Shown here: piece after piece, positions 12,636 to 50,778 of the stretch
Numbering within the stretch: the first letter of the stretch is position 1
Layout of the letters: every line of letters starts with the position of its first letter
Assembly: GCA_019746485.1 (NCBI GenBank)
Contig: JAIERW010000005.1
Location: 15,078 to 79,077, forward strand
Reading direction: 5' to 3'
Source of the DNA: Candidatus Babeliales bacterium
GTDB taxonomy: Bacteria > Babelota > Babeliae > Babelales > RVW-14
Length of the DNA: 64,000 nt
Program-made: the position numbers and the translations under genes
The notes under the pieces: generated by a model
Told to the model about the DNA's origin: nothing
Seen by the model: only the letters and a program-made list of their open reading frames with translations
The model's database searches: none

Positions 12636-15356
12636 ATGATCCCTCGTAAGCTAACGCTAAAAAACTTTTTGTGCTACGGCGACACGGCACAAGAAATAGA
12701 TTTTAAAGATTATTCCCTGATCTGCCTTTCGGGAAAAAATGGTTATGGCAAATCTGCTTTGCTAGACGCCATGACCTGGGCGGTGTGGGGCCAAGCACGC
12801 AAAGTTACCGGCGCCATAAAAGCCGACGACGGGTTGCTGCGCCTGGGCCAGAGCCGCATGATGGTGAGTTTTGAATTTGAACTGGGCAACAAGCGCTACC
12901 ACGTACGCCGCGAATTTGCCAAAACATATGGCAAGCCGTACGCAGCACTGGACTTTGAAGTTTTTGAAGAGCAGGCACAGCGTTTTGTTTCGTTAACCGA
13001 CAAAACAATTAAACAAACGCAAGACAAAATTGACGCAACTATCGGTTTAGATTTTGATACGTTTCTCAACTCGGCGTTTTTACGCCAAAACCAATCTAAC
13101 GAGTTTTCCAAAAAAACACCCAAAGAGCGTAAACAAATTTTGGCCAACATTTTGGGCCTAAGTAAATACGATCTGTTGCAGCAAGCAGCACTAGATAAAG
13201 CAAAAAAATTTATTGACGACATCAAGTTTATTCAAAAACTGCAGGAACAGTACCTGCTCGAGCTTGAAAAAAAACCGGTTGTTGAACAAACTGCCAGTGA
13301 TACAAAAAAAAATCTTATCGCACTCAGCTCTGAGCTTGACCACCAACACAAGCAGTTAATTGCCTTGCAGCAGCAAGAGCAACAGCTGGTGGACCAGCAG
13401 CGCCAGTACGAGTTTTTGACGCAACAGAACGAAACGTTGGCCAAGAAAGCAACACTCAAAAAGGCAGAACTCTTAGAACTACGCGCCGCCTGGCAAACCG
13501 CACACCGCAACGCCCTGCATTTGCCTGATACCAAAAAGCTGGAAGCTAAAAAACAATACCTGCGCGAACAAGAAAAAATTTTTATTACGCAACAACAAGC
13601 TGGCTTGGCTCTGCACGAGCATATTTTACAAAAAAAAGAGAACTACCAAAAAGTAGCACTGGCCTGGCAGCAAGAACAGGAAAAAACGCTGCAGGAGCTG
13701 CGCCGTACACGCGAACGCGCCGAGCTTGAAACAAAGCACTTGGCAACACAGCTGACCAGCAAACAGCGCGAAGCTGGCGAGCGGCAAGCACTCTTAAAAC
13801 AAACAAGCAACTCAATAAAAGAGCTTGCCCAAAAACTGCAAGAAAAGCAGATATTTACACAACAATTTCAGGCACTCAAAAGCCAGTTTGATAAACGACG
13901 TACGTTTTATAACACGCTCGTTCAGCGCGGCAATTATGCCAAAAACACGATTGGCGAGCTTGATCACAAAAAAAAGGCAGTCGACGACCAAACAAGCCCT
14001 TCTTGCCCACTCTGCTTACAAATTTTAACAGCAAAGCGTAAGCAATTTTTGAGCGTGCAATTTAGCAAAGAAGATGATTTTTTAAAGCACCGGCTTACCC
14101 GCGTTACAAACATTATCAAAAAACTTAAGCAGCTGTTGCTCGCCCAACACGAGCAGGTACAGCAGCAAACAGCCAAAGCTGAACAGTTTGCACACCTGCA
14201 GGCACAGCACGAAGAACTAGTAAAAAAAGAAGCACAGCTGATGCAGGAATGTAGCCAACTTGAGCAAGCAAGCGCTCTCTTGCTGCAACAGCACGCACAA
14301 CGTGAGCTTGAATGCACGCAACTGACCAACGCGTATGCTGAACAAGAGAAAGCATTTAGCAAAGAAAGCCCTAAAGCTAAAGAGCTTGAAACTCTCGCCC
14401 AAGAAATTAAAAAATTGGTAACCGAAAAAGAGCAGACGGCTCTTGACCAAAAAGCATATGCTCAGCTGCAAGAAGCGATCAAAAAAATTGAAGCCGCTTG
14501 CCAGCAGGTTCAGGCAACGCAGCACGATCTTGGCAAGCAAGAAAGCCGCAAAGAGCGTGTTACTCAAATTTGTAGCGAACTCAAAGAAGATAAACAACAA
14601 GTAGCCGAGCTTGAACTGCGCATTAAACAACTTGCTTTTAACCCACAAACAGCACTAGCCATGAGCACGACCATTGCTAACTTGGCACAGCAAGCAAGCA
14701 AACTTTCACAAGAAAAAGAACAGCTCTTACAAACACTTGGCCGCTTAGAAAACGAATTGCAACGGCTTGAAAAAGTAAAAAAAGAGCAGATCGACAATAT
14801 TAACAAACTCAATAAGCTTGAAGAAGAACGCGATGAGTACCAAATTATTGCGCAAGCATTTAGCAAAAATGGTATTCAGGCACTGCTAATCGAAGAAGCT
14901 ATTCCTGAAGTTGAAGAAGAAGCAAACGCTATTCTTGGACAACTGACCAACAATCAATCCCAAATTTTTATAGAATCGTTGCATGATTTAAAAAGTGGTG
15001 GCGTTAAAGAAACCTTGGTAATAAAAATTTCTGATGCTGCCGGCATGCGGCCGTACGAGATGTTTTCTGGCGGCGAGGCATTTCGCATTGATTTTGCGTT
15101 ACGCATAGCCATTTCTAAATTGCTGGCACGCCGAGCCGGCACAGCACTACAAACACTCATTATCGACGAAGGCTTTGGCTCGCAAGACGAAGAAGGGCTA
15201 GCACGGCTTATGAATGCCATTCACGCAATTCAACATGATTTTTCGCGGATTATAATCGTTTCGCATCTGCCAGAATTTAAAGATAATTTTCCGGTCCACT
15301 TTATTGTGGAAAAAGGACCAAGCGGTTCTCAGGTTCACATTGAAGAACGCGGCTAG
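12636..15356 (+). CDS. sbcC: SbcC/Rad50-like SMC-type ATPase (exonuclease subunit C)
   Basis: N-terminal Walker A LSGKNGYGKSALLDAMTWAVWG. A long Q/E/K coiled coil has a central zinc hook CPLC (14004-14015). The C-terminus has the signature FSGGEAFRIDFALRIA and Walker B LIIDEGFGSQD. Confidence 0.8.
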   Translation: MIPRKLTLKNFLCYGDTAQEIDFKDYSLICLSGKNGYGKSALLDAMTWAVWGQARKVTGAIKADDGLLRLGQSRMMVSFEFELGNKRYHVRREFAKTYGKPYAALDFEVFEEQAQRFVSLTDKTIKQTQDKIDATIGLDFDTFLNSAFLRQNQSNEFSKKTPKERKQILANILGLSKYDLLQQAALDKAKKFIDDIKFIQKLQEQYLLELEKKPVVEQTASDTKKNLIALSSELDHQHKQLIALQQQEQQLVDQQRQYEFLTQQNETLAKKATLKKAELLELRAAWQTAHRNALHLPDTKKLEAKKQYLREQEKIFITQQQAGLALHEHILQKKENYQKVALAWQQEQEKTLQELRRTRERAELETKHLATQLTSKQREAGERQALLKQTSNSIKELAQKLQEKQIFTQQFQALKSQFDKRRTFYNTLVQRGNYAKNTIGELDHKKKAVDDQTSPSCPLCLQILTAKRKQFLSVQFSKEDDFLKHRLTRVTNIIKKLKQLLLAQHEQVQQQTAKAEQFAHLQAQHEELVKKEAQLMQECSQLEQASALLLQQHAQRELECTQLTNAYAEQEKAFSKESPKAKELETLAQEIKKLVTEKEQTALDQKAYAQLQEAIKKIEAACQQVQATQHDLGKQESRKERVTQICSELKEDKQQVAELELRIKQLAFNPQTALAMSTTIANLAQQASKLSQEKEQLLQTLGRLENELQRLEKVKKEQIDNINKLNKLEEERDEYQIIAQAFSKNGIQALLIEEAIPEVEEEANAILGQLTNNQSQIFIESLHDLKSGGVKETLVIKISDAAGMRPYEMFSGGEAFRIDFALRIAISKLLARRAGTALQTLIIDEGFGSQDEEGLARLMNAIHAIQHDFSRIIIVSHLPEFKDNFPVHFIVEKGPSGSQVHIEERG

Positions 15357-15452
15357 TAAGCTACCCAAATAATCTCTTTTTTTGAACAATTGATTTTGGC
15401 AACCAAGAGGCGCTACGATCATTTTTTCTAGGTCTAAAAAAAGGAGATTTCT

Positions 15453-15662
15453 ATGTTGTTGTCAATGCTCGAAAAACCAGTAGAAACCATTACACAAGAA
15501 ACACAAGGCGTTGTGAGTGGTGCTATCAATTCAATTTACAACATGATTTTGGGCGCTCTTATTCTTAAAATTGCCGTAGCCATTGCTATTGTTATTGGGG
15601 TTGGCGCCGTTATTTATTGGGTTTTAAAAACCTGTAACCATAAGAATAAGCGCAAACGATAG
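15453..15662 (+). CDS. small hydrophobic protein (hypothetical)
   Basis: 69 aa with RBS aaaggag upstream, one or two TM segments (ILGALILKIAVAIAIVIGVGAVIYWVL) and a basic C-terminus. There are no recognisable motifs. Confidence 0.45.
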   Translation: MLLSMLEKPVETITQETQGVVSGAINSIYNMILGALILKIAVAIAIVIGVGAVIYWVLKTCNHKNKRKR

Positions 15663-15811
15663 ACATAAAAAAAGAGGGGTCCGTATCTGACCGATACTTC
15701 CCCCCCCCAAAAGAAAATAGGAGTAATAAACCCAGCTTACCAAAGCCAACAACGCTGTCAAAAGCTGGGCTCAAAGTACCAAAATACCCTTATTTTTAAA
15801 GGATTTAGCTC

Positions 15812-16954
15812 GTGAAAAGGAACAACTACTCCCCCTTTTTTACCGCCTTACTGCTCTTAGCAGCTTTCTGGCCTTTTGTCTCTCTGGGCCAAGAAGTGCT
15901 CCCACAACCCTGGACAACCAGCACCAATGAAATTGTTTTTGGCCAATCAGGCTCTTTTTCTGGCTCATTGGGCCTGTACGGCACCATTATTAAAAACGCA
16001 ATACAGCTTTGTTTTGATGCAGCAAACGAGCAAGGCGGCGTTAACGGCTATAAGTTGCGCCTAGAAAGCATGGAAGACAACGGCGATCCAGCACAAGCGG
16101 CCAATAACATTGCCCAATTGCGTGCCAAGGGCATTGATATGTTTTTGGGCAATATGGGCAGCCGCAGCATCGTAAAACTCTTGCCACAAATTGAAGCACA
16201 CGATATTGCTTTATTCTTTCCGTGGGGCGGCGACGAACAGCTCAGAAGCCAAAAGCTTTCTAGCATGATTAACGGACCAGGGCTTTTGGAGCCACAAATA
16301 AAAACGTTAGTCGACCATATTGTTAATAACGTCAAACAAAAAAAGATCGCTGTTTTTTACGCAGATGATGATTTTTCAGTCGGCGCAAAAGATGATCTGG
16401 TAGCTCAATTGAGTAGGCACGGCATTACACCAGTAGCACTCACTTCGTACAACCGTTTTACCATGGACATTGTTGCGGCAGCAGATCCACTGATCCAAAC
16501 AGACCCCAAGCTGGTAATATGCATTGCAACCAGTATGCCAACGGTACGCTTAATCAAGCATTTTTTTGAGCGCGGACATTACGCAACAACATTTTTTGGC
16601 ATCGATTCAACGTTGTTTGTAGGCAATATTCTGCAATCAAAGGGCATTGATTTTTACTATACATCGGCCACGCCAGACCCAGTTGCAAGCCAACTTTCTA
16701 TTGCAAGGCAGTACCGCGAAGACTTGAAACAATATATGCCAACCGAAACGCCCAACATTCTTTCGTTTACGTATTACCTAAGTGCCGCAATTATTGTTGA
16801 TGCACTCAAAAAACTAGACGGTCAACTAACCAAAGAAAACATTATTAACCAGATCGAAAACATGCAAAATTATAACCTTGGCGGATTTATGGTTAACTTT
16901 GACGCATCAACACGGCACGCTTACGGAAATCAAATTACGTTGATAAAAGGATAA
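15812..16954 (+). CDS. periplasmic binding protein, type I (LivK / ANF-receptor family), secreted
   Basis: GTG start with RBS aaagga. Signal peptide FFTALLLLAAFWPFVSLG. IVFGQSGSFSGSLGLYGTIIKNAIQLCFDAANEQGGVNGYKLRLESMEDNGDPAQAANNIAQL is typical of Leu/Ile/Val-binding-protein-like PBPs. Confidence 0.7.
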   Translation: MKRNNYSPFFTALLLLAAFWPFVSLGQEVLPQPWTTSTNEIVFGQSGSFSGSLGLYGTIIKNAIQLCFDAANEQGGVNGYKLRLESMEDNGDPAQAANNIAQLRAKGIDMFLGNMGSRSIVKLLPQIEAHDIALFFPWGGDEQLRSQKLSSMINGPGLLEPQIKTLVDHIVNNVKQKKIAVFYADDDFSVGAKDDLVAQLSRHGITPVALTSYNRFTMDIVAAADPLIQTDPKLVICIATSMPTVRLIKHFFERGHYATTFFGIDSTLFVGNILQSKGIDFYYTSATPDPVASQLSIARQYREDLKQYMPTETPNILSFTYYLSAAIIVDALKKLDGQLTKENIINQIENMQNYNLGGFMVNFDASTRHAYGNQITLIKG

Positions 16955-16957
16955 GTA

Positions 16958-18043
16958 ATGTTTGACTCACTTTTTGAAAAAACGCGTTATGCCAAAGTAC
17001 AGCTCACGGTAACTACGTTGGCAGCTCTTTACATTTTTCTCATTATTTTGGTGCAATATCGTCAAGAGTTTTACCCAGAACCAATCCCCACCCTGCTTGA
17101 AGTCAGCGTAGAAGAAAAAAAACTTGCTTCACGGATAGAAACCGGCATACACATTAATCATTTCCAAGAGTTTTCTTTCACCAAAAACAAATTTATTCTT
17201 GATGCTATTGTTTGGTTTAAATTTGCAAAAACTACCGAATCGCTGGCAACACTGCAACGCTTTATCATAAAAAATGGCGAACTTCTTGAAACTGAACGGC
17301 TCATTATGCTTTCAGAACCTATTATCAAAATACTTGGCGATGACGTATTGGTCTGCTTTCATGTGTACACCAAATTTATGGCCAATATTCACTACAAGCG
17401 CTTTCCCATAAGCGATCATCGGCTCAATATTATACTTGAAAACCGCTCGGTAACGGCACGCGAAATGTATTTTGAGTCCTCACCTGAAAACATTGCGCTT
17501 TCTGATGATATTTTAGTAAAAAACTGGGAGCCAAAAGCAAAACATACCGTAACTGGCTTTACACAAGCAAATCTTAAAGAATCAGATCCCGCTATGGAAA
17601 TTAACTATCCTGCTGTTGTTTTTTCTATCGACTTTAAAAGCATTGGCGCTCGCGATGTTATTTCTTTGTACTTCCCGCTCTTTGTAATCTTTTTTATTGG
17701 CTTGCTTTCACTCACCGTTAACATTATTAACTCGGTACGCTTGGGCATTATTGCCTCTTCATTGCCCATCTTAGTACTTTTTAGAATGGTTATCGATAAT
17801 ACATCACCAGCAGTTGGCAACACCACCCATATTGATTTTATTTTTTACGCCATCGTCTTTCTGTCATTGCTTATTTTGTTTTTTCAAACGTACGTTATGC
17901 TCGAATTGCAACGCATTAAAGATGTTGAACCAGGCAACACCGCAGAAAAAGCCATGGACAGTCTGGAAAAGCTGAACAACAATATTTTCTTTGGTATTAT
18001 CTTCTTGCTTGTGTGCCTGGTCACCTATAACTACTTTAGATAG
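16958..18043 (+). CDS. pentameric ligand-gated ion channel (Cys-loop/pLGIC, GLIC/ELIC-like) homolog
   Basis: An N-terminal signal-anchor is followed by a beta-rich domain. Motifs are ETGIHINHFQEFSFTKNKFILDAIVWFKF (compare GLIC TGIYLIECYSLDDKAETFKVNAFLSLSW) and YKRFPISDHRLNIILENRS (compare YPFDSQTLHIYLIVRS). Four TM helices follow, with an M2-like segment VRLGIIASSLPILVLFRMVIDNTSP. The comparison to GLIC is from memory. Confidence 0.65.
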   Translation: MFDSLFEKTRYAKVQLTVTTLAALYIFLIILVQYRQEFYPEPIPTLLEVSVEEKKLASRIETGIHINHFQEFSFTKNKFILDAIVWFKFAKTTESLATLQRFIIKNGELLETERLIMLSEPIIKILGDDVLVCFHVYTKFMANIHYKRFPISDHRLNIILENRSVTAREMYFESSPENIALSDDILVKNWEPKAKHTVTGFTQANLKESDPAMEINYPAVVFSIDFKSIGARDVISLYFPLFVIFFIGLLSLTVNIINSVRLGIIASSLPILVLFRMVIDNTSPAVGNTTHIDFIFYAIVFLSLLILFFQTYVMLELQRIKDVEPGNTAEKAMDSLEKLNNNIFFGIIFLLVCLVTYNYFR

Positions 18044-18045
18044 TA

Positions 18046-19227
18046 TCAATACCACGAATCAACATGCTCTAAACTAACCAACCATCCGCCATATTCGGGC
18101 GCAAAATAGCGTCTTGATTGAACTTCAAGCGTACGAAAAAATGGATGCCACTGATCAACAGTCACTCCTTCAAAGGCTCCGTACGGCAATGTTGATTTAT
18201 AAACCATCTGCTTGTCGGCCGAATAGGTAATAATAAATGTGTCACGCGTAATATCGCCGCAATTTGCTTTGTGAATACCATTGGTATCAAAAAGAAATAT
18301 GTCACCAGCTTTACCAAGCGCCTTAAAAACAACCGGTTCTTTACCAAACTTCTTTTGGTAATAGTCCAAATCACCCGGTATTCCAACGTATGTTTCATAA
18401 TCATGCGAAACGGCATGAGAGCCAAGAACGTACGACAAATGACGCGACCGCTCTTCAACATCACCCAACAAGATCATCATTTTCACACGCTGGCCAGATC
18501 TGTCATGATGCCAGTTAAAGATACTTACCGCTTTCCCGCCCGGCATGTAATGCGTAGCCCACCCTTTTACAATATAACCAACTTTGCCAAGATAATTATT
18601 AATTACTGAGCAAACCATTTCATTGCAACAAAAATCAACCAACGTTTGCGATAATTTGAAAGGATTGTTGCAATGGTAAACATTGGTTTCAGGCTCATAA
18701 TAATCATCTCGCCTTTTTTCTACCTTAATACCTCGCGCTCGCTGATCATCAATTGAATCAACAAATTTTTGAAAGTCTTTCTGCAGTTGAGCCAACTCGA
18801 CATCACTAATCAAGCCAGAAATACGAACTATACCATTGGCATTAAGCTCTTCAAGGTAAGCAAGCCCTTTTTCATCAAGTCGATCATCACAAAAACCAGG
18901 CTCTGGCAACCGTTGATAATATTCACGCACGCCATGCACAAAAGCTCTGGGAGCATTTTCAAGAAGTTGCTTATCACACAAACCATGACGCATAAGCAAT
19001 GCCGCAATTCGGTGGTCTGGGTTCTTGCCCCTAACTGCCAACGTAAAAAGATACGGATCAAGTTCTTGATTCTCTTGTCGATTTTCAAGCAACATTTTTA
19101 CCTGATCATAGTCACCCCACTCTATCGCACTGCTCAAATCATGAGAATTCAATTTCGTCGAAAAAACACAGAGCACAAAAAAAATATTCCCAAAAAAATT
19201 CACCCAACGCTTGAACTTTTTATTCAT
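18046..19227 (-). CDS. phytanoyl-CoA dioxygenase (PhyH)-like Fe(II)/2-oxoglutarate oxygenase with N-terminal signal/anchor
   Basis: Hydrophobic N-terminus WVNFFGNIFFVLCVFSTKLNS. HxD motif in NWHHDRSGQRVKMMILLGDV and a distal His in GDIFLFDTNGIHKAN. The N-terminal roughly 80 aa is weakly ankyrin-like (AIEWGDYDQVKMLLEN, LAVRGKNPDHRIAALLMRHG). Confidence 0.6.
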   Translation of the reverse strand: MNKKFKRWVNFFGNIFFVLCVFSTKLNSHDLSSAIEWGDYDQVKMLLENRQENQELDPYLFTLAVRGKNPDHRIAALLMRHGLCDKQLLENAPRAFVHGVREYYQRLPEPGFCDDRLDEKGLAYLEELNANGIVRISGLISDVELAQLQKDFQKFVDSIDDQRARGIKVEKRRDDYYEPETNVYHCNNPFKLSQTLVDFCCNEMVCSVINNYLGKVGYIVKGWATHYMPGGKAVSIFNWHHDRSGQRVKMMILLGDVEERSRHLSYVLGSHAVSHDYETYVGIPGDLDYYQKKFGKEPVVFKALGKAGDIFLFDTNGIHKANCGDITRDTFIITYSADKQMVYKSTLPYGAFEGVTVDQWHPFFRTLEVQSRRYFAPEYGGWLVSLEHVDSWY

Positions 19228-19463: not shown

Positions 19464-20426
19464 ATGAATATGAAGAAAATTTTAGCACTTGCACTCGCGT
19501 TTGCTGTTTCACAATCAGGCTTGAAAGCAGATGAAACAACGCGCTTAATTGCTAAAGACCGTCAATTAATTACCAAGCATCTTCAAGTTGGTCAAAATGA
19601 AGATGGAAAAAGAAGAAATTTTGAAGCAACCGACAAAGCATTCTTTAGAAGAGGCCTGGTAAACGGTTCTGGCGGCAACCTTGATGAACAAGGTGTTTTT
19701 AAGTGCGGAAAACGTGAAGAAATAATGAGCATGTCATTCAACCCATCAACACAATTGATCTGCGTTGAATTTTGCGATTCAGGAGAAGCTGCGGCAGGCG
19801 CACTTATTGATGGGCTTGTTTTCTGCGGTGCAGCCACAACAGAAGATAACGAATTTGACAGCTCAATCGCACAAGTTATAACCAACATTGAACGCATGTA
19901 CCTCAACAATGGTACTGATGTTGACAATTGCTACCAAGATGGCTTCTATGAAACAATCAACACATCAACAGGTTGCGAAGCACAAGATTGCGACAATTTT
20001 TATGGATCAAATCTGAACAACGTTAGCTTTACCGAACACCCAATTCCACACGTTAACGACAACAAGAAAGTCTACATTGGCCTTTATAACGATGATGCAA
20101 AACAATTTTATTGCCAACAATATCCATTCGTGTTCCAAGATGGTGGCTGCGTGTTCCTAAACGTTAAGAGCTGCAACCTTAAAAGCGTAACCGTCGTTGA
20201 TTTGCCAAATGAAAACTTCAGCTCATTCCAAACAGTTTTGCAAGACAAAATTAAAGTCCAACTTAGCGGCTATAACATTTTCCAAATCTGGGCAGTTGCT
20301 GATGCAATTGTAGCAAACAACTATGCTGCAACATTGACAAACTTATTAGTAACCAACACCGAAGAATCAGTTTTGGAAGCTTGTAACTACATCCAAAACC
20401 TTGCTTGCCAAATATTCGGCTGCTAA
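19464..20426 (+). CDS. secreted cysteine-rich protein, family member 1 (most divergent)
   Basis: 320 aa. Signal peptide MNMKKILALALAFAVSQSGLKA. It shares family blocks with the next three genes: DRQLITKHLQVGQNEDGKRRNFE, FNPSTQLICVEFCD, VFCG, KKVYIGLYNDD, GGCVFLNVKSCNLKSVTVVDLP, VLQDKI and FQIW. Confidence 0.75.
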   Translation: MNMKKILALALAFAVSQSGLKADETTRLIAKDRQLITKHLQVGQNEDGKRRNFEATDKAFFRRGLVNGSGGNLDEQGVFKCGKREEIMSMSFNPSTQLICVEFCDSGEAAAGALIDGLVFCGAATTEDNEFDSSIAQVITNIERMYLNNGTDVDNCYQDGFYETINTSTGCEAQDCDNFYGSNLNNVSFTEHPIPHVNDNKKVYIGLYNDDAKQFYCQQYPFVFQDGGCVFLNVKSCNLKSVTVVDLPNENFSSFQTVLQDKIKVQLSGYNIFQIWAVADAIVANNYAATLTNLLVTNTEESVLEACNYIQNLACQIFGC

Positions 20427-20470
20427 ACGATAAGCAACTTTTGACACACGCAGTATTTTTCAAATCTAAT

Positions 20471-20498
20471 CGGGGCAGGTACAACAGTGCCTGCCCCG
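20471..20498 (+). terminator. conserved ggcagg/cctgcc hairpin after family member 1 (no clear T-tract)
   Basis: cggggcagg, 10 nt loop, cctgccccg. The core is the same as the hairpins after members 2 and 3. Confidence 0.4.
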
Positions 20499-20543
20499 AT
20501 TGACATAAACAAGTTAGCTACAAAAAAAATAAGGATACAGACC

Positions 20544-21527
20544 ATGAAGAATTTATCAGCAAAGATTGTGCTCTTAAGCATAATCGCACTCTCATTGCCA
20601 ACAGCGCATTCAAAAGATATGCCAACCCGCTTGGCCACAACCGATCGTCAAATTATCAATAACAATCTTCAAATTGGTAAAAACGACACCGACAAGACCA
20701 GAAGAGATTTAGAAGTTACACGCGAAACGTTTTTGCGTAAAAACCTGGTAGTTGGCAGTGGCAGTAATTTGGACGAACAAGGCAACAGAAATTGTGGATG
20801 CAACCGAACCATTGGCACCTATGATTTTAATCCCAATACCCAGCTTTTGTGCATAGAATTTTGCAACAATGACTCAGATAGCAATGGCGCTTGGATGGAT
20901 CTAAATTTCTGTGGCAAAGCAGTACCAAGAGATCAACAAGAAGAACTTGAATCAATTATTCCTATTTCTTCTACCTACACCGGCCTCTTTGTGTCAAGCA
21001 GCGATCCTGAAGACAACAGTGGTCTCTGGGCAAACTCCACCGTTATTCGTGACGACCAAGGCAATGACAACGGCCCAAGTGGCACCAGCTTATACAATTT
21101 TCGTTTTATAGAAGACTTATATCCTTATAAAACAGGACCATGCGTAGATAGCACCAAGGTATACGTTGGCATTTACGACAATGATGAAAACGACAAGGCA
21201 TTTTATCTTCAAAATGAATATGACTACGTTTTTCAAGAAGGCTGTCTGTTTGCCGACGTTAAATCTTGTAATATTAAGCACGTAAGCGTTGTCGATATTC
21301 CACAAGAATTTTTTACATTTGATCAAATTCTTCAAGACAAAATCGCATACATTGTGTGCAGCGAACAAAATAATGTTTTCCAAGTTTTTGGCGTTGCACA
21401 TTACATAGCAATCACCGCAGGCCTTGAAGCCGCACTAACAGCACTTCTTAATGGCAATGAGTCAGAAGTAGAACAAGCTTGCACTCAAATTTACGGCATT
21501 TGGCTTAATTTGTATGTTTGTGATTAA
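20544..21527 (+). CDS. secreted cysteine-rich protein, family member 2
   Basis: Start at the ATG at 20544 (RBS aagga, MKNLSAKIVLLSIIALSLPTAHS). Blocks TRLATTDRQIINNNLQIGKND..RRDLEVTRETF, NCGCNRT, FNPNTQLLCIEFCNNDSDSNGAW, NFCGK, LWANSTVIRDDQGNDN and GCLFADVKSCNIKHVSVVDIPQ. Confidence 0.8.
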   Translation: MKNLSAKIVLLSIIALSLPTAHSKDMPTRLATTDRQIINNNLQIGKNDTDKTRRDLEVTRETFLRKNLVVGSGSNLDEQGNRNCGCNRTIGTYDFNPNTQLLCIEFCNNDSDSNGAWMDLNFCGKAVPRDQQEELESIIPISSTYTGLFVSSSDPEDNSGLWANSTVIRDDQGNDNGPSGTSLYNFRFIEDLYPYKTGPCVDSTKVYVGIYDNDENDKAFYLQNEYDYVFQEGCLFADVKSCNIKHVSVVDIPQEFFTFDQILQDKIAYIVCSEQNNVFQVFGVAHYIAITAGLEAALTALLNGNESEVEQACTQIYGIWLNLYVCD

Positions 21528-21569
21528 TTCGTTGCAACTAAAACATTGAAATACATAGAAAAAACAAAG

Positions 21570-21598
21570 CGAGGCAGGTGAACACAACACCTGCCTCG
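21570..21598 (+). terminator. hairpin after family member 2
   Basis: cgaggcaggtg, loop aacacaa, cacctgcctcg, then tttact. Confidence 0.5.
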
Positions 21599-21624
21599 TT
21601 TACTATCCACAAGGACACATGCTT

Positions 21625-22614
21625 ATGAAAACTCTCTATGCAAAGATTGTGCTTTTAAGCATAATCACCTTAACTTTCACCGTAGCCCACGCAGAAGAAA
21701 GTATTACACGTCTCTCCCCAACCAACCGTCAAATCATAGAAAAAAACGTTCAAATTGGCCAAAACGACAAAAATGCCAACCGAAGAGATTTAGAAGTTAC
21801 TCGCGAAACATTTTGTCGCAACAAAGTTGTTATTGGGAGCGGCGGTAATATCGGTGATGATAACACCAGAAATTGTGGTTGCTGCCGAACACTCAGCGAA
21901 TTTGATTTTAACCCAAATACCCAACTTTTGTGCATAGAATTTTGTGATACTGACGTAAATAGTAATGGTGCATGGCTTGACATTAACTTCTGTGGTAAGG
22001 CAATCCCACGCAAAAGTCAATGCTATTTAGACCCAACAATACCTATCTCTTCAACTTATACCCGTTTTTTTGTTTCCTGTAGCGATCCTGCAGATGACAG
22101 CTACCTCTGGGCAAATTCTACCGTTATTCGTGACGACCAAGGAAATGATAACTGCCCAGATGGAACCTGCTTGTACAGTTTTCGTGTCATCGCTGCTCAA
22201 TATCCCTACATTCCAACACCAAGTACGCAAAGCACCAAAGTATATATCGGTCTTTATGACAACGACAGCTCAGACATGGCATTTTATTTAAAGAACTGTT
22301 ATGACTACATCTTTCTTAAAGGTTGTCTTTTTGTAGATGCAGTATCTTGTCAAATAAAACACATGAGCATTGTTAACATCCCACAAAATATTTTTGCTTT
22401 TGAGCAAATACTCCAAAATAAGATTATCAGCACCGTTTGCAACCAAGAAGGCAACAACGTCTTTCAAACTTTTGGCGTTGCAAAAAAAATTGCAGAAACT
22501 CAAGGACTTGCAGAAACACTCACGGATCTTCTTAAAGGTTCGCAAACGCAAGTGCAAAACGCGTGTGACCAAATTTTGGCAATCTGGCAACAGCTGTATA
22601 TCGTCATAACATAA
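21625..22614 (+). CDS. secreted cysteine-rich protein, family member 3
   Basis: MKTLYAKIVLLSIITLTFTVAHA. It has the same blocks as member 2 (NCGCCRT, LLCIEFCDTDVNSNGAW, NFCGK, LWANSTVIRDDQGNDNCPDG, GCLFVDAVSCQIKHMSIVNIPQ). The ATG at 21619 is an alternative start. Confidence 0.8.
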   Translation: MKTLYAKIVLLSIITLTFTVAHAEESITRLSPTNRQIIEKNVQIGQNDKNANRRDLEVTRETFCRNKVVIGSGGNIGDDNTRNCGCCRTLSEFDFNPNTQLLCIEFCDTDVNSNGAWLDINFCGKAIPRKSQCYLDPTIPISSTYTRFFVSCSDPADDSYLWANSTVIRDDQGNDNCPDGTCLYSFRVIAAQYPYIPTPSTQSTKVYIGLYDNDSSDMAFYLKNCYDYIFLKGCLFVDAVSCQIKHMSIVNIPQNIFAFEQILQNKIISTVCNQEGNNVFQTFGVAKKIAETQGLAETLTDLLKGSQTQVQNACDQILAIWQQLYIVIT

Positions 22615-22621
22615 AAAAAAT

Positions 22622-22651
22622 TGAGGCAGGTTTTTTAAAAAACCTGCCTCA
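22622..22651. terminator. perfect 30-nt palindromic hairpin after family member 3
   Basis: tgaggcaggtttttt/aaaaaacctgcctca. Confidence 0.55.
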
Positions 22652-22676
22652 GTCAAAATAACAAGGACACATGATT

Positions 22677-23696
22677 ATGAAAACTTTCTATTCAAAGATT
22701 GTGCTTCTTAGCATAATCACGCTCACAGCACCAACCGCACATGCAAAAGATATGCCAACACGCTTGGCCACAACCGACCGTCAAATTATCAACAACAATC
22801 TTCAAATTGGTAAAAATGACAGCGATAAAACAAGAAGAGACTTAGAAGTTACACGCGAAGCATTTTTGCGTAGTAACCTTATTGTAGGCAGTGGCAGCAA
22901 CTTGGACGAACAAGGCAACAGAAACTGCGGATGCAATAGAACTCTTGGGACATTTCCCTTTAACCCAAACACTCAACTTCTTTGCATAGAATTTTGCAAC
23001 AATGACAGCGACAGCAATGGGGCTTGGCTCAACATGACTTTCTGCGGCAAAGTAGCTCCAAGACCCGAAGAAGCGGAAGAAGCGCAAGAGGAACAAGAAG
23101 AACTGGAAGCGCTTATTCCCATATCTTCTACCTACACACGCCTTTTTGTATCCAGTTCCGATGTTACTGACAGCTATCTTTGGGCAAACTCTACCGTTAT
23201 TCGCGATGACCAAGGCAATGATAACTGTCCAAACGGCGCTTGCATAAGTTCTTTTGACTTCATCAATGACCAATATCCCTACATAACAAATACACAAACA
23301 GAAAGCACAAAAATCTATGTTGGCATTTACGATAACAACCAAAACGATTTTGCTTTTTATCTTCAAAACACCTACGACTATCTCTTTACCCAAGGTTGTC
23401 TCTTTGTTGACCAAATATCGTGCAATATTAAAAATATCAAAGTCGTTGATATTCCACAGGATTTTTTCTCTCTTAGCCCAATTTTACGAGAAAAAATCGT
23501 TTCGGTTATTACTGGGCTGGAAGAAAACCACAATGTCTTTCAGATTTTTGGGGTAGCACAACTGATAGCAACGTACCCAGAACTTGCCAACTTACTCACT
23601 GAATTTCTTCTTTCTGAAGATGAAGAACTAATAGAAGAAGTTTGCTTCTTCATTGAGTTAATTTGGTACTATTTATATGTCGCAATGATAATATAA
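22677..23696 (+). CDS. secreted cysteine-rich protein, family member 4 (with acidic EEAEEAQEEQEELE insert)
   Basis: MKTFYSKIVLLSIITLTAPTAHA. The N-terminal roughly 115 aa is nearly identical to member 2 (KDMPTRLATTDRQIINNNLQIGKND..KTRRDLEVTRE). The ATG at 22671 is an alternative start. Confidence 0.8.
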   Translation: MKTFYSKIVLLSIITLTAPTAHAKDMPTRLATTDRQIINNNLQIGKNDSDKTRRDLEVTREAFLRSNLIVGSGSNLDEQGNRNCGCNRTLGTFPFNPNTQLLCIEFCNNDSDSNGAWLNMTFCGKVAPRPEEAEEAQEEQEELEALIPISSTYTRLFVSSSDVTDSYLWANSTVIRDDQGNDNCPNGACISSFDFINDQYPYITNTQTESTKIYVGIYDNNQNDFAFYLQNTYDYLFTQGCLFVDQISCNIKNIKVVDIPQDFFSLSPILREKIVSVITGLEENHNVFQIFGVAQLIATYPELANLLTEFLLSEDEELIEEVCFFIELIWYYLYVAMII

Positions 23697-26215: not shown

Positions 26216-26761
26216 GTTTTATTCTTAATTTTATTAGTTTTAGTAATCAACATACGTTTGAACCCTATGATTTTACAACAATAAAATAGGCTTGTAAATA
26301 CGAGAAAAAAACGACTAGATCGACAAAAAGTCACCCCATCTTACAAACAAGCCTGCACCAACAAAGCACAAATAGTATTCTACCTGAAACAAACACCCTT
26401 ATTTATACGAAAAATCAACAACAATCAACAAAATCCCCACTTTTTCCAATTGACTTTATACCCGAGCACTTTATACTGAAACTATCTAAAACATAGGACT
26501 TGTAGGCCCTTTTATTTAATTTCACCACCATAATGAAGTTTAATAAGTACGATACGTTTAATAAGTACACGGCCATAGCTCTCAGCGGGTGCTCTAATCC
26601 GCCATCACTTTGCACGCCATTATTTCTAGCACAAAAATTTTTTAAATTTCATTTTTCTTTTTTACGAAGTCGGGTATCTTGTTGTTCCCAGCTTTTCTTA
26701 ACAGATAGAAAAGACAGGCGTTACCAAATTATTACCAATAATCCTTTTTTATGGAGTGATC

Positions 26762-28192
26762 ATGCAAGAAAAGCTCTCCGGTAAGTTATATAAGTTATGG
26801 GGCATTAAGCGAGAGTTTCTTCTCAAAATATTGCTACTTTCAGCAACGTACTTCTTTTTAATGGCTTGCCATGTGATTTGGAAGCCACTTAAATACTCGC
26901 TCTTTGGGCAAATTGTTGGCACCAGCTCCGTCCCTTTCGCTAAAATTTCTTCTCTGCTTTTCTTAATTCCTCTGATCTTACTTTACTCCAAACTTGTCGA
27001 CTGGCTCAGACGCCACCATCTCCTCTATTTTTTTACTATATCTCACGCACTTGGCGGTCTATTTTTTTACTACTTCATCTCTCATCCCGTTTACGGCATT
27101 GCAAATACTGACACAGGACCAAGTCGTTATATTGGATGGCTCTTTTATTTCTTTATGGAAAGCTTCGACGCCTTTCTTTCAACAACATTCTGGTCATTTG
27201 CTGACTCAGTAAACAACGCTAATGACGCAAAATATTATTATGGCTTTTTTGTTTCAGGTTCAAAAATTGGTGGCATGCTTACCGCAGCAACATTATACTT
27301 TGTGCTCACGGGCGCAACAACAGAAAGCCAGTTAAGCATTATTCCTAACGCACTTCTGATTGGCAGCTGCATGCTCTTTGCCGCAGCAGCATGTATCTAC
27401 TTTCTCGTCAAAAAAGTTCCTGAAGGCATCATGCACGGCTATGAAAAAGTATATCAACTTGAAAAACATAAAGATGTCGAACACATCCCCACGCCAACGC
27501 GGCTTAAAAGCTTTTTACGCTCAATCACCAGCGCCTTTGATGGCTTAACCATCATGGTAAAGAGTTCTTATGTTATGGGTATTTTTTCACTCGTATTTTT
27601 TTATGAAATTATCATAGCAATTTTTGATTACCTGGTTATGATGCGTGCCGAAAGCGCACATCCTTCAATCGGCTCAATGACGGCTTTTTATGCACTATAT
27701 TTCTTCATCATGAATGGTATTGGCTTGTTGATCAGCTTGTTTGGTACAACCCCATTGTTGCGTATTTTGGGCATTAGAATGTCTCTCTTTGCCTTCCCGC
27801 TTATCTGCCTGATTATGCTCGTAACTACCTTTATATTTCCTCAAGGATGGATTTTGTTTGGTACCTTGATCGGTTTACGCGCCTTTAACTATGCACTCAA
27901 CCACCCAACACGAGAAGTCTTATATATTCCAACCACCAAAGATATCAAGTTTAAAGCAAAAACATGGACCGATGCCTTTGGGTCTCGTATTGCTAAAGGA
28001 TTTGGTTCCTTCTTCAACTTGGCGCTTCAAAGTGTTGCTCCGGCTATTGCCTTATTCTCAAGCATCACATTCAGCCTTGGCTTAACAGGCATCTGGCTGG
28101 TTATTACCTACTTTTTAGGTAAGACATTGCAAAGCGCAATCGATGAAAATCGCATTATCGGCGAAACAGAAGAGTCTAAAACCAATAGGTAG
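26762..28192 (+). CDS. ntt: nucleotide transporter, ATP/ADP translocase (TLC/NTT) family, copy 1
   Basis: About 12 TM segments. FWSFADSVNNANDAKYYYGFFVSGSKIGG resembles the chlamydial/rickettsial FWGFANEIT..EAKRFYALFG.GAN. REVLYIPTTKDIKFKAKTWTDAFGSRIAKGFGS resembles EMAYIPLD.E.K.KGKAAIDVV..R.GKSGGS. The comparison is from memory. Start is the ATG at 26762, with the GTG at 26756 as an alternative. Confidence 0.75.
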   Translation: MQEKLSGKLYKLWGIKREFLLKILLLSATYFFLMACHVIWKPLKYSLFGQIVGTSSVPFAKISSLLFLIPLILLYSKLVDWLRRHHLLYFFTISHALGGLFFYYFISHPVYGIANTDTGPSRYIGWLFYFFMESFDAFLSTTFWSFADSVNNANDAKYYYGFFVSGSKIGGMLTAATLYFVLTGATTESQLSIIPNALLIGSCMLFAAAACIYFLVKKVPEGIMHGYEKVYQLEKHKDVEHIPTPTRLKSFLRSITSAFDGLTIMVKSSYVMGIFSLVFFYEIIIAIFDYLVMMRAESAHPSIGSMTAFYALYFFIMNGIGLLISLFGTTPLLRILGIRMSLFAFPLICLIMLVTTFIFPQGWILFGTLIGLRAFNYALNHPTREVLYIPTTKDIKFKAKTWTDAFGSRIAKGFGSFFNLALQSVAPAIALFSSITFSLGLTGIWLVITYFLGKTLQSAIDENRIIGETEESKTNR

Positions 28193-28222
28193 TAATCAAC
28201 TAAGTACAACAAAAGGAAGAGT

Positions 28223-29617
28223 ATGATTTTTAGATTTGCCAGGCATATTTCACGAACAATGGAAGAAAAATTACAAATAGATTCAAATGAGATAAAAAAA
28301 TTATTTCTTTTGGCGTTTTCATTTTTCTTCATAATAGCGTCATACTCAATTCTTCGCTCACTTAAAACGTCCATCTTTTTAGGGCTTGTAGGCAAAGAAT
28401 ACCAACCAATGACACGCCTTATTGCTATTGTTATTATGTTTCCAGCAATGCTTGGCTACGCCAAACTGGTTGATAAATTTAAACGCGAACAAATTGTTTA
28501 TACCATCATTGGTATTTATGCTGTTGCAAGCCTTGTCTTTGCTGTACTTTTAGCCCATCCCACCATTGGCGTCCAAAACACTTTCACCAGCCCCTACCGC
28601 TTTATTGGCTGGGGTTTTGAAATTTTCATGGATCTTTACTCAGCCCTGGTGGTAAGCACCTTCTGGAGCTTTGTTAACTCAATCTGCACGCCAATGTTTG
28701 CGGAAAAAGGATACGGCACCATTGTAGCTATCTCTAAAATAGGAGGCATTGCTGCAGCTCTTATTGGCTTATTAATAACAAGATCTGGCCTTGAAACATC
28801 ATCATCAATTCCACTTCTTACCGCAAGCGCTGGCATTTTCTTATTCCTTTCAATTCTCTTGGTACGTTCTATTATCAAAACCATCCCAGATTCATATTTG
28901 CACGGTTATCAAGCAGCGTTTGTTGAAGAGAAGAAGGCTGAAAAGCAACTTAAAAAACCGGGTATCTTTGAAGGCTTACGCTTGATGCTTACCGAGCCGT
29001 ATGTTCTTGGAATTTTCGGCATTTTGTACAGCATGGAAATTATTTCAATCATTTTTGACTATCAAATGCAAGTATTAATGTCTGTTGAAATGAACAACCA
29101 CATTGGCTCTATGAGCTCATTTATGTTTATTTATACAGCAACATTTCAAGTCTGCACCTTCTTATTTGCATTTTTGGGCACCTCAACGTTGTTGAAAAAA
29201 ATTGGGGTTCGTGCTTGCTTAATTATCACTCCGCTTGTACTGGGTCTTCTTTCACTCATCATGCTTACCTGGCCATCGCTCTGGATAACCTTTTTCATTT
29301 TGGTTATTTTACGCGCTCTGAACTACGGCTTCAACCAGCCAGTACGCGAAATACTGTATATTCCAACAGTTAAAGATATCCAATTTAAATCAAAAGCTTG
29401 GATCGAGTCGTTTGGTAAAACCTTTTCCAAGGCCTCCGGTTCAGCCTTTAGTTGGATTTCTATAACCACCAACCCGCTCTTGTGCATCCGAACCAACGCT
29501 ATATTTTCCTTTGCCATTAGCGCTTTTTACCTGGTTGTGGTATTTTTCTTGGGCCGACGCTATGCAAAAACAGTTGAAAATAATGAAGTTATCGGCACAA
29601 AGAGATATAAATCTTGA
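28223..29617 (+). CDS. ntt: nucleotide transporter, ATP/ADP translocase (TLC/NTT) family, copy 2
   Basis: A paralog of the previous gene: FWSFVNSICTPMFAEKGYGTIVAISKIGG and REILYIPTVKDIQFKSKAWIESFGKTFSKASGS. About 12 TM segments. Confidence 0.75.
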   Translation: MIFRFARHISRTMEEKLQIDSNEIKKLFLLAFSFFFIIASYSILRSLKTSIFLGLVGKEYQPMTRLIAIVIMFPAMLGYAKLVDKFKREQIVYTIIGIYAVASLVFAVLLAHPTIGVQNTFTSPYRFIGWGFEIFMDLYSALVVSTFWSFVNSICTPMFAEKGYGTIVAISKIGGIAAALIGLLITRSGLETSSSIPLLTASAGIFLFLSILLVRSIIKTIPDSYLHGYQAAFVEEKKAEKQLKKPGIFEGLRLMLTEPYVLGIFGILYSMEIISIIFDYQMQVLMSVEMNNHIGSMSSFMFIYTATFQVCTFLFAFLGTSTLLKKIGVRACLIITPLVLGLLSLIMLTWPSLWITFFILVILRALNYGFNQPVREILYIPTVKDIQFKSKAWIESFGKTFSKASGSAFSWISITTNPLLCIRTNAIFSFAISAFYLVVVFFLGRRYAKTVENNEVIGTKRYKS

Positions 29618-31229: not shown

Positions 31230-31805
31230 ATGAAAAAGTTACCTAATTTAATGTTAATTATAGGCCTGTTAGCAGGCTCATTGCACGGCGCAGCAACATC
31301 ACCATTTGAACACTACTGTCAGCTTGGAAAAAGCAAAAAAGAAAAATTGTTTCAACTCGCAATTGTAAACCAAGACTACATAGCCAGAAAAATAGTGGCG
31401 TTACAAAACGATACAACAAAAACAATAACAGAGCTCAACGAGGAATACCCAAAACTCAGAAAAGAACAAACGCAAGCAGAAGATATCATTGGATGCTACA
31501 GCAATTGTTCATTTGCTCAATTTATTATAGAAAAAACTCGGTTACAACTAAATTATGCTGATGAACAAAAAGAACCAATGATCCACCTCTTACAACAAAT
31601 CACATTAATAACGAACCATATAAACAAGATAAAATTAGAAATGGCTAAATTAGAATGGTGCGTAAAACCACGCAAGAAATTTGAACGGCCATGGAGAGAT
31701 TATCTTGGAAAAACTCCACGAAAAAGCTCACACCGCAAAGCAGCAATGATCAATCACCACAACAACGCACAGTTAAAAAAGAGGTTATACCATGAAAACA
31801 TTTAA
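31230..31805 (+). CDS. secreted coiled-coil protein, six-gene family member 1
   Basis: RBS gggaggttatatc-ATG. Signal peptide MKKLPNLMLIIGLLAGSLHGAATS. C-terminal basic block CVKPRKKFERPWRDYLGKTPRKSSHRK (31659-31739). Confidence 0.75.
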   Translation: MKKLPNLMLIIGLLAGSLHGAATSPFEHYCQLGKSKKEKLFQLAIVNQDYIARKIVALQNDTTKTITELNEEYPKLRKEQTQAEDIIGCYSNCSFAQFIIEKTRLQLNYADEQKEPMIHLLQQITLITNHINKIKLEMAKLEWCVKPRKKFERPWRDYLGKTPRKSSHRKAAMINHHNNAQLKKRLYHENI

Positions 31806-32688
31806 TTATTTATTGTTAATATTAGGCCTTGCTGCCAGCTCACTCTACGGCGCAGCATCATCATCTGGCCCAAGCACACAAGCTACGAAAAAAATTGAAC
31901 ACTACCAAAAACTTGCACAAGACAAAGATAACAGCTATTTGAAGCTGGCAATCATCGAAAGATTTATAGCTGAAAAAAATATAGTACAACTTTCCTCCCT
32001 CAGAGAAAAAGCAAGTAGCGCAGAAGAGATAACAGAGATCGACACACAATTGAAAAATCTCGAAATGCGAATAACCAAAGCACTAGAAATTATTGAACAC
32101 TATGCCACCTATCCATTTGCTGATCGTGTTTCTAAAACAACCAGATTGATAATACTAAGCACACAAGACCAAGCGAAACCAGAACAAGCCCTGCTTAAAC
32201 ATCATGCAGCAACGGAAGAACGCATAGACAAAATAGCATTGGAAATGGCCGAGTTAACCCGAAGCACAGGCTTGGGAATGATCCCGCGTCTAAAATTTGA
32301 AAGGCGCTGGAGAATCTATCTTGGAAAAGCTCCACGAGCTAGTTCAAAACGAAAACCGGTAAGTATCAATAATTGCCATAAAAACTATGAAGCCAACTAC
32401 TTGGCATACGTTCTTTTAAAGGTATTCGTTCTTGAACTAGATCATGAAATAATACGCCAAGATATTATGGATGATGCTGCAGAACAACAACTTAAGGCAA
32501 TATCAAAAGAAATAAAGCGCTTGGAACACTATGCAGAAAAAACAGAGGGCTACTCCTTTCATAAAGAAATAGAGCGCTACGTTGACGACATTATAGAAAA
32601 AAAATACGGACACCTTGAAGGCCAAGAATTAAGAGAAGTAATTCAAGTTGAAGTTGATGCAATCCGGAAAAGACTATCAGCTGATTAA
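31792..32688 (+). CDS. secreted coiled-coil protein, six-gene family member 2
   Basis: aagaggttatacc-ATG. Signal MKTFNYLLLILGLAASSLYGAASSS. Basic block GLGMIPRLKFERRWRIYLGKAPRASSKRK (from 32269) plus an extra roughly 110-aa C-terminal extension. It overlaps member 1 by 14 nt. Confidence 0.75.
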   Translation: MKTFNYLLLILGLAASSLYGAASSSGPSTQATKKIEHYQKLAQDKDNSYLKLAIIERFIAEKNIVQLSSLREKASSAEEITEIDTQLKNLEMRITKALEIIEHYATYPFADRVSKTTRLIILSTQDQAKPEQALLKHHAATEERIDKIALEMAELTRSTGLGMIPRLKFERRWRIYLGKAPRASSKRKPVSINNCHKNYEANYLAYVLLKVFVLELDHEIIRQDIMDDAAEQQLKAISKEIKRLEHYAEKTEGYSFHKEIERYVDDIIEKKYGHLEGQELREVIQVEVDAIRKRLSAD

Positions 32689-32704
32689 AAAAAGAGGTTA
32701 TATC

Positions 32705-50772: not shown

Positions 50773-50778
50773 AAACCG

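Follow-up and report, generated by a model that had tools for sequence, protein, structure and literature searches.

A conserved two-gene unit in Dependentiae couples a periplasmic binding protein to a divergent pentameric ligand-gated ion channel homolog

RESULTS

A tightly coupled gene pair

The gene pair studied here lies in a 64,000-nucleotide stretch of contig JAIERW010000005.1 (positions 15,078 to 79,077) from a Candidatus Babeliales bacterium (Dependentiae/TM6); this whole stretch is called the window below, and positions are counted from its first letter. [quoted passage not shown] The original prediction, made by reading the sequence, placed the end of the PBP gene 3 nt before a 361-aa open reading frame (ORF), and these coordinates proved to be exact (Table 1). 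The junction reads ...AAAGGA TAA GTA ATG, where the stop codon of ORF1 occupies 16952-16954 and the Shine-Dalgarno-like AAAGGA (16946-16951) lies inside the final ORF1 codons.

Table 1. Features of the gene pair in the window and of related loci in other lineages
Feature	Position	Strand	Remarks
Leader	15663-15811	+	Upstream of PBP gene; presumed promoter/5'UTR of two-gene operon
ORF1, Peripla_BP_6 binding protein	15812-16954	+	GTG start, 380 aa
Predicted signal peptide of PBP	15812-15889	+	Residues 1-26; predicted cleavage between ...VSLG and QE
Translational-coupling junction	16946-16960	+	SD-like AAAGGA, TAA stop, 3-nt spacer, ATG
ORF2, divergent pLGIC-superfamily membrane protein	16958-18043	+	ATG start, 361 aa
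TM0, extra N-terminal transmembrane (TM) helix	16991-17062	+	Residues 12-35; pLDDT above 90
Periplasmic beta-sandwich domain	17129-17641	+	Residues 58-228; AlphaFold secondary structure
Pro-loop F149-P150-I-S-D153	17402-17416	+	Within beta-sandwich domain
Four-helix channel domain	17651-18037	+	M1 232-250, M2 260-282, M3 291-321, M4 327-360
M2 helix	17735-17803	+	Residues 260-282
Fusion locus	L028:8001-11312		Channel + Metallophos + Peripla_BP_6 in a single chain
Two-gene locus	L030 (6001-10012) / L031		Channel, then one 774-aa Peripla_BP_6 protein
Tandem-partner locus	L032 (6001-13080) / L033		Channel, then three tandem ~740-aa Metallophos+Peripla_BP_6 proteins
Truncated-partner loci	L036, L037		Channel, then truncated Metallophos+Peripla_BP_6 homologs
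Flanked-channel locus	L034		Channel between upstream PBP and downstream Metallophos-like protein

ORF1 encodes a binding protein of the LivK/ANF-receptor type

ORF1 matched the Pfam family Peripla_BP_6 with 135.8 bits (cutoff 31.7, E 3.6e-39) and, more weakly, Peripla_BP_5 and ANF_receptor. The AlphaFold model (pLDDT 92.7, pTM 0.88) adopts the canonical two-lobe type-I clamshell, whose nearest structures in Foldseek were 4kv7, 3lop, 4m88 and the Leu-bound 4n0q (TM 0.76-0.85; for the first three, TM 0.78-0.85 and rmsd about 2.8 A). The model was closer to closed forms than to open apo LivK (TM 0.53-0.57), and LivJ and LivK were clearly, though more distantly, related (E about 1e-17 in a profile comparison). 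The N-terminus, MKRNNYSPFFTALLLLAAFWPFVSLG followed by QE, has a positively charged n-region and a hydrophobic stretch at residues 8-30, and model confidence is low over residues 1-40 (pLDDT 53-67), which fits a Sec signal peptide with a cleavage site that we assigned by eye. As no Cys is present there, the protein has no lipobox and is not a lipoprotein. These results bear out the first reading of ORF1 as a LivK/ANF-receptor-type protein with a signal peptide: by homology and by its model it is a type-I (HAAT-like) PBP, predicted to be exported.

The structures near ORF1 bind Leu or other amino acids, GABA, aromatic acids, urea or amides. In a comparison by eye, the LivJ contact motif TPAAT corresponded to FPWGG in the ORF1 family, in which W138 is invariant. 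Because the ligands of the neighbours are varied and, by eye, the LivJ-type contact motif is not conserved, no ligand was assigned to the PBP. The 116 close homologs all come from Dependentiae, and public sources label the orthologs as "ABC transporter substrate-binding protein".

ORF2 is a divergent member of the pLGIC superfamily

Searches of ORF2 against Pfam and NCBIfam gave no match at E≤1, and this included Neur_chan_LBD (PF02931) and Neur_chan_memb (PF02932), the two profiles by which the original prediction proposed to check its channel assignment; the family is too divergent for them. None of 98 close homologs carries a precomputed Pfam domain, and the public annotation is "hypothetical protein" throughout. 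Since the Pfam and NCBIfam models returned only noise, the assignment rests on sequence, profile and fold searches of the Protein Data Bank (PDB). A phmmer search of PDB sequences found GLIC entries only (E about 1e-4), with alignments that begin at the beta6-beta7 loop and extend through M3. With a profile built from 94 family members, a GLIC-GlyR chimera was found at E 3e-6, as well as GlyR alpha2, GABA rho1 and a pH-gated chloride channel. The AlphaFold model built on the family alignment (pLDDT 92.1, pTM 0.83) gave 1106 Foldseek matches in the PDB at E≤1e-3, the best at E 5.6e-17; TM was 0.6-0.72 over about 330 columns, and the listed top 50 were all pLGICs (GLIC, GABA-A, GlyR). The by-eye alignment with GLIC/ELIC-type channels agrees with these PDB searches, and the motifs on which it relied exist in the protein: residues 62-86 read TGIHINHF..F..D...W, and residues 146-164 read YKRFPISDHRLNIILENRS. 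Sequence comparison and the predicted structure together confirm ORF2 as a divergent superfamily member, composed of TM0, a beta-sandwich and M1-M4.

The hydropathy peak of TM0 spans residues 14-32, and Q15, Y25 (80/94), W32 and Q33 are conserved. TM0 lies within the matched region of nearly all distant relatives, and in the longer members P0247, P0115 and P0112 further TM helices precede it, indicating a genuine fifth TM segment rather than a cleaved signal peptide. To our knowledge, no characterised pLGIC has a helix of this type. The predicted topology places the N-terminus inside, the beta-sandwich in the periplasm and the C-terminus outside. In the model the M3-M4 loop is very short, at about 6 residues. 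The beta-sandwich domain is strongly conserved in the family and contains many invariant aromatics.

Superfamily hallmarks and departures from them

We scored the family against the hallmark table of Jaiteh et al. 2016, using HMMER alignments and the column statistics of the 94 members, and found six of the nine superfamily hallmarks. The loop proline P150, present in 94/94, aligned to P120 of GLIC, and F149 (91 F, 3 Y) to Y119. The beta9 tryptophan (W190, at least 90%), the M1 kink proline (P240, 93/94) and the M2-M3 loop proline (P284, 94/94) stand in the GLIC columns of W160, P204 and P247, respectively. In the canonical F/YPxD motif, the Asp two residues past the loop Pro is 93% conserved and forms a salt bridge to the pre-M1 Arg (94%) (Jaiteh 2016), whereas this family reads FPxxD: the P+2 residue is G, S or A (S152 in the window protein) and the Asp stands at P+3 (D153, 66/94). 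Likewise, R192 of GLIC aligned to S223, and a 5-residue insertion where M1 starts contains a conserved Arg (R232, 80/94). D153 and R232 are a possible shifted equivalent of the Asp-Arg salt bridge.

Within M2, the 0' residue is an invariant Arg (R261), and F275 and D280 occupy 14' and 19'; D293 matches the Asp of the GlyR "AID" motif in M3. In pLGICs at large, 0' is basic in 79%, and 9' is Leu in 75% and Phe in 13% (Jaiteh 2016). Here the 9' gate residue is P270 (17765-17767), which is invariant in the Dependentiae clade and replaced by Thr in P0156 and P0142. A second residue unusual for a pLGIC pore is the 15' Arg (R276, 17783-17785), which is nearly invariant (92/94). The pore lining has small or polar residues at 2' and 6' and hydrophobic ones at 13' and 16'. 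As there is no Glu at -1' or -2', and -3', mostly Asp in the family, is Asn in the window protein, ion selectivity cannot be called. The most conserved positions of the family belong to the gating interface and the pore (P150, P240, R261, P270, L272, L274, F275, R276, P284 and D293).

The pair is conserved across Dependentiae

A pattern scan with one genome per species recovered 23 Dependentiae loci, of which 21 include upstream sequence. A PBP ortholog (41-57% identity) lies directly upstream of the channel gene on the same strand in 18 of these 21 loci, which range from 35 to 57% identity, so that the pairing survives the comparison across related genomes that had been proposed for it. Over all 20 paired loci the distance between the genes ranged from -23 to +21 nt and was mostly 2-4 nt, and the motif ...A(A)AGGA/AAGGGA TAA recurs at the 3' end of the PBP gene. 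Such translational coupling suggests a roughly 1:1 ratio of PBP to channel. Clustering of neighbours gave RodA-SbcC-PBP-channel-KdtA-Lon-TLC-TLC as the ancestral gene order, and in eight loci the PBP>channel unit was intact while both flanks were entirely different.

In the window, ORF1 and ORF2 are in frame with each other, and the same is true of 12 of the 20 paired loci, whose spacers measure 0, 3, 9, 15 or 21 nt. This exceeds the expected one-third and is probably due to phylogenetic inertia in the TAA-NNN-ATG junction. We considered and rejected a read-through fusion of the two ORFs, since the frame is shared in those loci only and the spacer varies; it is also topologically implausible, because TM0 would then put the outer domain of the channel on the wrong side of the membrane.

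Fused and rearranged partners outside Dependentiae

An exhaustive profile search of 1.84 billion cluster representatives returned 1616 relatives of the channel at E≤1e-3, 348 of them at E≤1e-30, so that the family greatly exceeds its Dependentiae members. Three relatives (P0156, P0163 and P0194) are single chains in which the channel module is followed by a Metallophos domain (PPP-type phosphoesterase) and a C-terminal Peripla_BP_6 domain, and three more (P0203, P0230 and P0233) were assigned to this architecture by length; the fusions measure about 970-1110 aa. The N-terminus of P0156 is 31% identical to the window channel over 288 aa (E 2e-45), and its C-terminal domain is 26% identical to the window PBP over full length (E 3e-31). 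Because the extension directly follows M4, the fused Metallophos and PBP domains would be periplasmic, beside the beta-sandwich. The PPP metal-binding motifs of P0156 are partly degenerate (GDLQG / GNVVDR / GNHE), and its JGI annotation is [quoted passage not shown] only.

In other low-GC (27-30%) lineages outside Dependentiae, separate partner genes start 9-30 nt after the channel homolog and encode proteins with signal-peptide-like N-termini, in the arrangements listed in Table 1. The PPP motifs are intact in one of them, L032_g2 (GDLHG/GDVINR/GNHE), which on this basis may be an active periplasmic phosphoesterase. Channel and PBP were linked or fused in six of seven informative non-Dependentiae samples. 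The two families thus occur in three configurations, with the PBP upstream, with a Metallophos-PBP protein downstream, or covalently joined, which amounts to a gene-neighbourhood and Rosetta-stone signature of direct interaction. Judging from these sequences, the families probably interact directly, in function and by physical contact, and the natural channel-Metallophos-PBP fusions are the strongest support for the coupling.

Several relatives carry long extensions before TM0, namely P0112 (816 aa), P0115 (604 aa), P0124 (664 aa), P0119 and P0125, the longest being P0117/P0246 (1562/1656 aa). Pfam searches of these extensions gave no matches; the regions are Lys-rich or multi-TM, and some come from Babeliales. 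In P0142/P0247 (P0247, 551 aa), a ~200-aa 6-TM DUF5985-like module precedes TM0.

No importer genes accompany the binding protein

The original prediction held that no livHMGF genes accompany the PBP, and a Pfam inventory covering essentially all ORFs of at least 100 aa extends this to the whole window, where no BPD_transp_2 domain or other ABC permease was found. Besides SbcC, the sole ABC-type ATPase of the window (39013-39792) is unrelated and neighbours der and dnaX at a distance of 21 kb. Annotated neighbourhoods of relatives contained no ABC permease or ATPase genes within 10 kb of the pair, and of the roughly 30 loci inspected none had ABC genes nearby, except for SbcC and unrelated ATPases. 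The livHMGF set of two BPD_transp_2 permeases and two ABC ATPases was therefore found neither in the window nor in the related loci (8-10 kb). Of the two outcomes named beforehand as contrary to a PBP-channel pair, neither occurred: ORF2 has its pLGIC match, and the PBP genes of relatives do not stand beside ABC permease genes.

DISCUSSION

A probable binding-protein-dependent receptor channel

The functional coupling of PBP and channel is well supported, and the recurring, sometimes fused pairing suggests that this PBP serves a channel rather than an ABC pump. Drawing on sequence, predicted structure and gene context, we consider it on balance probable, with modest confidence, that the conserved two-gene operon encodes a binding-protein-dependent receptor channel. 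The first gene product would be a soluble type-I solute-binding protein (SBP) exported to the periplasm, and the second, translationally coupled to it, a 5-TM inner-membrane protein of the pLGIC superfamily, presumably a homopentamer. The PBP would capture a small host-derived solute, perhaps amino-acid-, amide- or organic-acid-like, close around it and dock on the periplasmic domain of the channel. We infer that the PBP gates the channel; once docked, it could open the pore allosterically or pass its ligand on to a site of the channel itself. Ion flux through the pore would then alter membrane potential or ion content and give this energy-parasitic bacterium a fast, ATP-independent readout of the host environment.

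On a more speculative reading, which we consider less likely than not, the physiological agonist would be the ligand-loaded secreted PBP itself instead of a free small molecule, making an obligate two-subunit channel, or else the pentamer would be the pore of an ATP-independent, PBP-dependent uptake system. If so, the window pair would be the simplest representative of a large unannotated 5-TM branch of pLGICs with about 1600 cluster representatives, whose partner in other lineages would additionally carry a periplasmic PPP-type phosphoesterase domain.

Several observations weigh against a binding-protein-dependent receptor channel. In three Dependentiae loci (L016, L019 and L021) the channel stands in the same synteny without an adjacent PBP, and tblastn at E≤10 found no PBP remnants there; in such loci the channel may function by itself, or the PBP gene may be located elsewhere. 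In a neighbour-joining tree without support values these loci occupy two positions within the PBP-linked clade, a pattern suggestive of secondary loss or relocation of the PBP. Outside Dependentiae, L029 is the sample without a PBP neighbour. A mirror-tree comparison was uninformative, in that PBP-channel distances correlated (r 0.74-0.81) no better than those between the channel and the syntenic controls SbcC, RodA, Lon and KdtA (r 0.66-0.83). An independent Logan assembly of the same strain (L024:3383-4524) has a 1-nt deletion in the PBP gene, at about 16046 of the window, which splits it into 83-aa and 294-aa calls while the channel protein remains 100% identical; in the protein database an intact 380-aa entry is missing, and only the truncated form of 294 aa occurs at 100% identity (P0250). 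Assembly error, strain variation and incipient pseudogenisation are all possible causes of the frameshift. Finally, the 9' Pro/Thr, the displaced Pro-loop Asp and the unaligned pre-M1 Arg possibly point to a non-conducting or differently gated protein.

Alternative explanations

The pentamer could instead be an uptake pore, to which the PBP delivers an amino acid, amine or organic acid that permeates the opened channel down the gradient from the host cytosol, a logic analogous to TRAP/TTT or ABC systems on a pLGIC scaffold. Dependentiae are unable to make amino acids and depend on a small set of transporters (PMC4776705). The genome of the window encodes TLC ATP/ADP translocases, L032 has several tandem PBP paralogs per channel much as some ABC permeases have multiple SBPs, its Metallophos domain with intact PPP motifs (L032_g2) could release a transportable product, and the polar or kinked 9' residue (Pro/Thr) argues against a tight hydrophobic gate. 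We nevertheless regard uptake as not very likely, as the residues that line the pore follow the usual pattern of ion channels, facilitated diffusion yields no accumulation, and the genomic evidence is equally compatible with signalling. We also know of no pLGIC that acts as a nutrient importer. Free ligand, pH or Ca2+ might otherwise gate the channel directly through its own sites, like GLIC, ELIC and DeCLIC, with a PBP that merely concentrates or buffers the ligand or is loosely related to the process. Ligand concentration is what Tasneem et al. proposed for fused and operonic PBPs (PMC549065), and it would suit the three Dependentiae lineages that retain a channel without an adjacent PBP as well as the many invariant aromatics of the highly conserved beta-sandwich. 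The roughly 1:1 ratio suggested by translational coupling speaks against it, as do the covalent PBP-channel fusions, which suggest direct physical cooperation rather than ligand buffering, and we consider it unlikely.

That the pLGIC-like protein has lost conduction and is instead the membrane anchor or transmembrane transducer of the PBP, and elsewhere also of the phosphoesterase, seems to us quite improbable. It would account for an invariant 9' Pro where 75% of pLGICs have Leu, for the displaced Pro-loop Asp and pre-M1 Arg, for the missing -1'/-2' Glu and for the failure of Pfam models to recognise the family. On the other hand, gating-interface and pore residues are the most conserved, as expected under selection for pore or gating function, and with an M3-M4 loop of about 6 residues the protein has no cytoplasmic output domain. 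Even less probable, and in our view very doubtful, is an ordinary orphan SBP of a LIV-type ABC importer encoded elsewhere, next to the channel through inherited synteny only. The public annotation of all orthologs says as much, the nearest structures are ABC-associated HAAT binding proteins, and the part of this genome inspected is 64 kb. Against this stand the survival of the pair where both flanks were rearranged in eight loci, the conserved SD-like junction, the adjacency of the same two families in other order or as fusions in unrelated low-GC lineages, and the absence of ABC genes, other than SbcC and unrelated ATPases, near about 30 loci.

Relation to known systems

PBP-I domains fused N-terminally to pLGICs are known from the alpha-proteobacteria Magnetospirillum and Bradyrhizobium, so the fusions mentioned in the original prediction had indeed been described, and stand-alone PBP-II or Cache genes occur in predicted operons with bacterial pLGICs; both kinds of partner were proposed to assist the channel in sensing small molecules (Tasneem et al. 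2004, PMC549065). The concept of a PBP coupled to a bacterial pLGIC is thus not new; of the suggested split PBP and channel pair, the genetic coupling is supported by our results, and the idea as such is already in that paper. The systems are alike in a PBP fold genetically coupled to a Cys-less pLGIC and in the functional inference drawn from it. They differ in that the partner here is a stand-alone PBP-I rather than a PBP-II, that the window pair consists of two ORFs with a stop between them rather than an N-terminal fusion, and that the fused relatives carry the PBP C-terminally, after M4 and behind a Metallophos domain. Compared with the channels of Tasneem et al. and Jaiteh et al. 2016, the family is a divergent branch unseen by Pfam, with an extra TM helix, in Dependentiae and low-GC lineages that they did not cover; Jaiteh 2016 mentions neither TM6 nor periplasmic domains. 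Full-text literature searches gave no paper that connects Dependentiae to ligand-gated channels, or pLGICs to solute-binding proteins. What is new is therefore the stand-alone PBP-I partner, the C-terminal Metallophos-PBP fusions and the tandem partner arrays; the large divergent 5-TM branch missed by family models, with its non-canonical Pro-loop, pre-M1 and 9' positions; and the occurrence of the family in Dependentiae and other reduced genomes.

With GLIC, ELIC, DeCLIC and sTeLIC, ORF2 shares the beta-sandwich and M1-M4 fold, the short M3-M4 loop, the Pro-loop Pro, the beta9 Trp, the M1 Pro, the 14' Phe, the acidic 19' and the M2-M3 Pro. It differs from the characterised prokaryotic pLGICs in sequence (about 13-14% identity), in TM0, in FPxxD, in the 5-residue pre-M1 insertion, in a 9' Pro instead of Leu/Ile and in the nearly invariant 15' Arg, and its 0' Arg is as in anionic Cys-loop receptors. 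Gating of GLIC, ELIC, DeCLIC and sTeLIC involves protons, amines or Ca2+ and no partner protein, and DeCLIC is the only pLGIC with an accessory domain whose structure has been solved.

Ionotropic glutamate receptors (iGluRs), class C G-protein-coupled receptors (GPCRs) and ANF receptors likewise use a LivK/ANF-receptor-type clamshell as the sensor of a membrane signalling module. There the clamshell is fused to an unrelated module (a tetrameric P-loop channel, a GPCR or a guanylyl cyclase), whereas here the module is a pLGIC and the clamshell a separate subunit. Docking of a ligand-loaded periplasmic PBP on a membrane receptor that is not a transporter is established for MBP-Tar, LuxP-LuxQ, TorT-TorS and ChvE-VirA. 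Those sensors signal through kinases or methyl-accepting domains, while ORF2 has no cytoplasmic domain and ion flux is its presumed output. With the LIV-I importer the pair has in common the HAAT-type fold family of LivJ and LivK; it differs in the lack of permease and ATPase genes alongside, in the pocket as judged by eye (FPWGG) and in a partner gene that encodes a channel homolog.

A family genetically locked to a PBP offers a tractable system for asking how a clamshell sensor might drive a pentameric channel, following the design logic of iGluRs and class C GPCRs on a Cys-loop scaffold. Prokaryotic pLGICs have no known physiological role (Jaiteh 2016), and the pair makes the question of what these proteins do experimentally approachable. 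It may also help to study how intracellular parasites with reduced genomes sense or tap the metabolites of their hosts. For annotation, more than 100 Dependentiae proteins that lack a nearby ABC partner are at present called ABC transporter substrate-binding proteins, and the channels paired with them are left as hypothetical proteins. TM0, the 9' Pro/Thr and the shifted Pro-loop Asp widen the known sequence limits of the pLGIC fold. The points that go beyond the original prediction are TM0, the 9' Pro, the larger family outside Dependentiae and the channel-Metallophos-PBP fusions.

Leader and neighbouring genes

The leader upstream of the PBP gene had an RNA fold z-score of -2.3, and a stable hairpin (CCCAGCUU...AAGCUGGG) lies in it at about 15731-15771, between a 69-aa ORF and the PBP gene; it may terminate transcription of the upstream gene or have a regulatory function. 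The leader had no Rfam match at E≤1 and thus gives no riboswitch clue to the ligand. A scan of 15300-18400 for sigma-70 promoter and terminator consensus sequences scored no better than shuffles. The 69-aa ORF (15453-15662) was rejected as a member of the system, as it is not conserved in related loci.

On the other side, a homolog of PhyH-type Fe(II)/2-oxoglutarate dioxygenases (18046-19227, minus strand, E 1.2e-7) with a hydrophobic N-terminal segment converges on the channel gene, leaving 2 nt between the stop codons. Because other loci have KdtA in that place, it lies outside the conserved unit. Right after it, at 19464-23696, follow four tandem paralogous genes for Cys-rich proteins (320-346 aa) with signal peptides, for which Pfam gave no match; by their sequences they look like a lineage-specific secreted family, possibly effectors.

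Farther away, the window contains two tandem genes for type-I phosphodiesterase/nucleotide pyrophosphatases (41318-44727) and two tandem TLC ATP/ADP translocase genes (26756-29617). Both pairs are consistent with nucleotide scavenging from the host, and the translocases fit the energy-parasitic lifestyle of the phylum (PMC4776705). A run of large ORFs (690-965 aa) at 44752-58972 and five consecutive ORFs of 190-350 aa at 31230-35628 had no Pfam matches. Between 40 and 58 kb of the window, the GC content (45-48%) is higher and the AT skew (about 0.3) strong in comparison with the rest.

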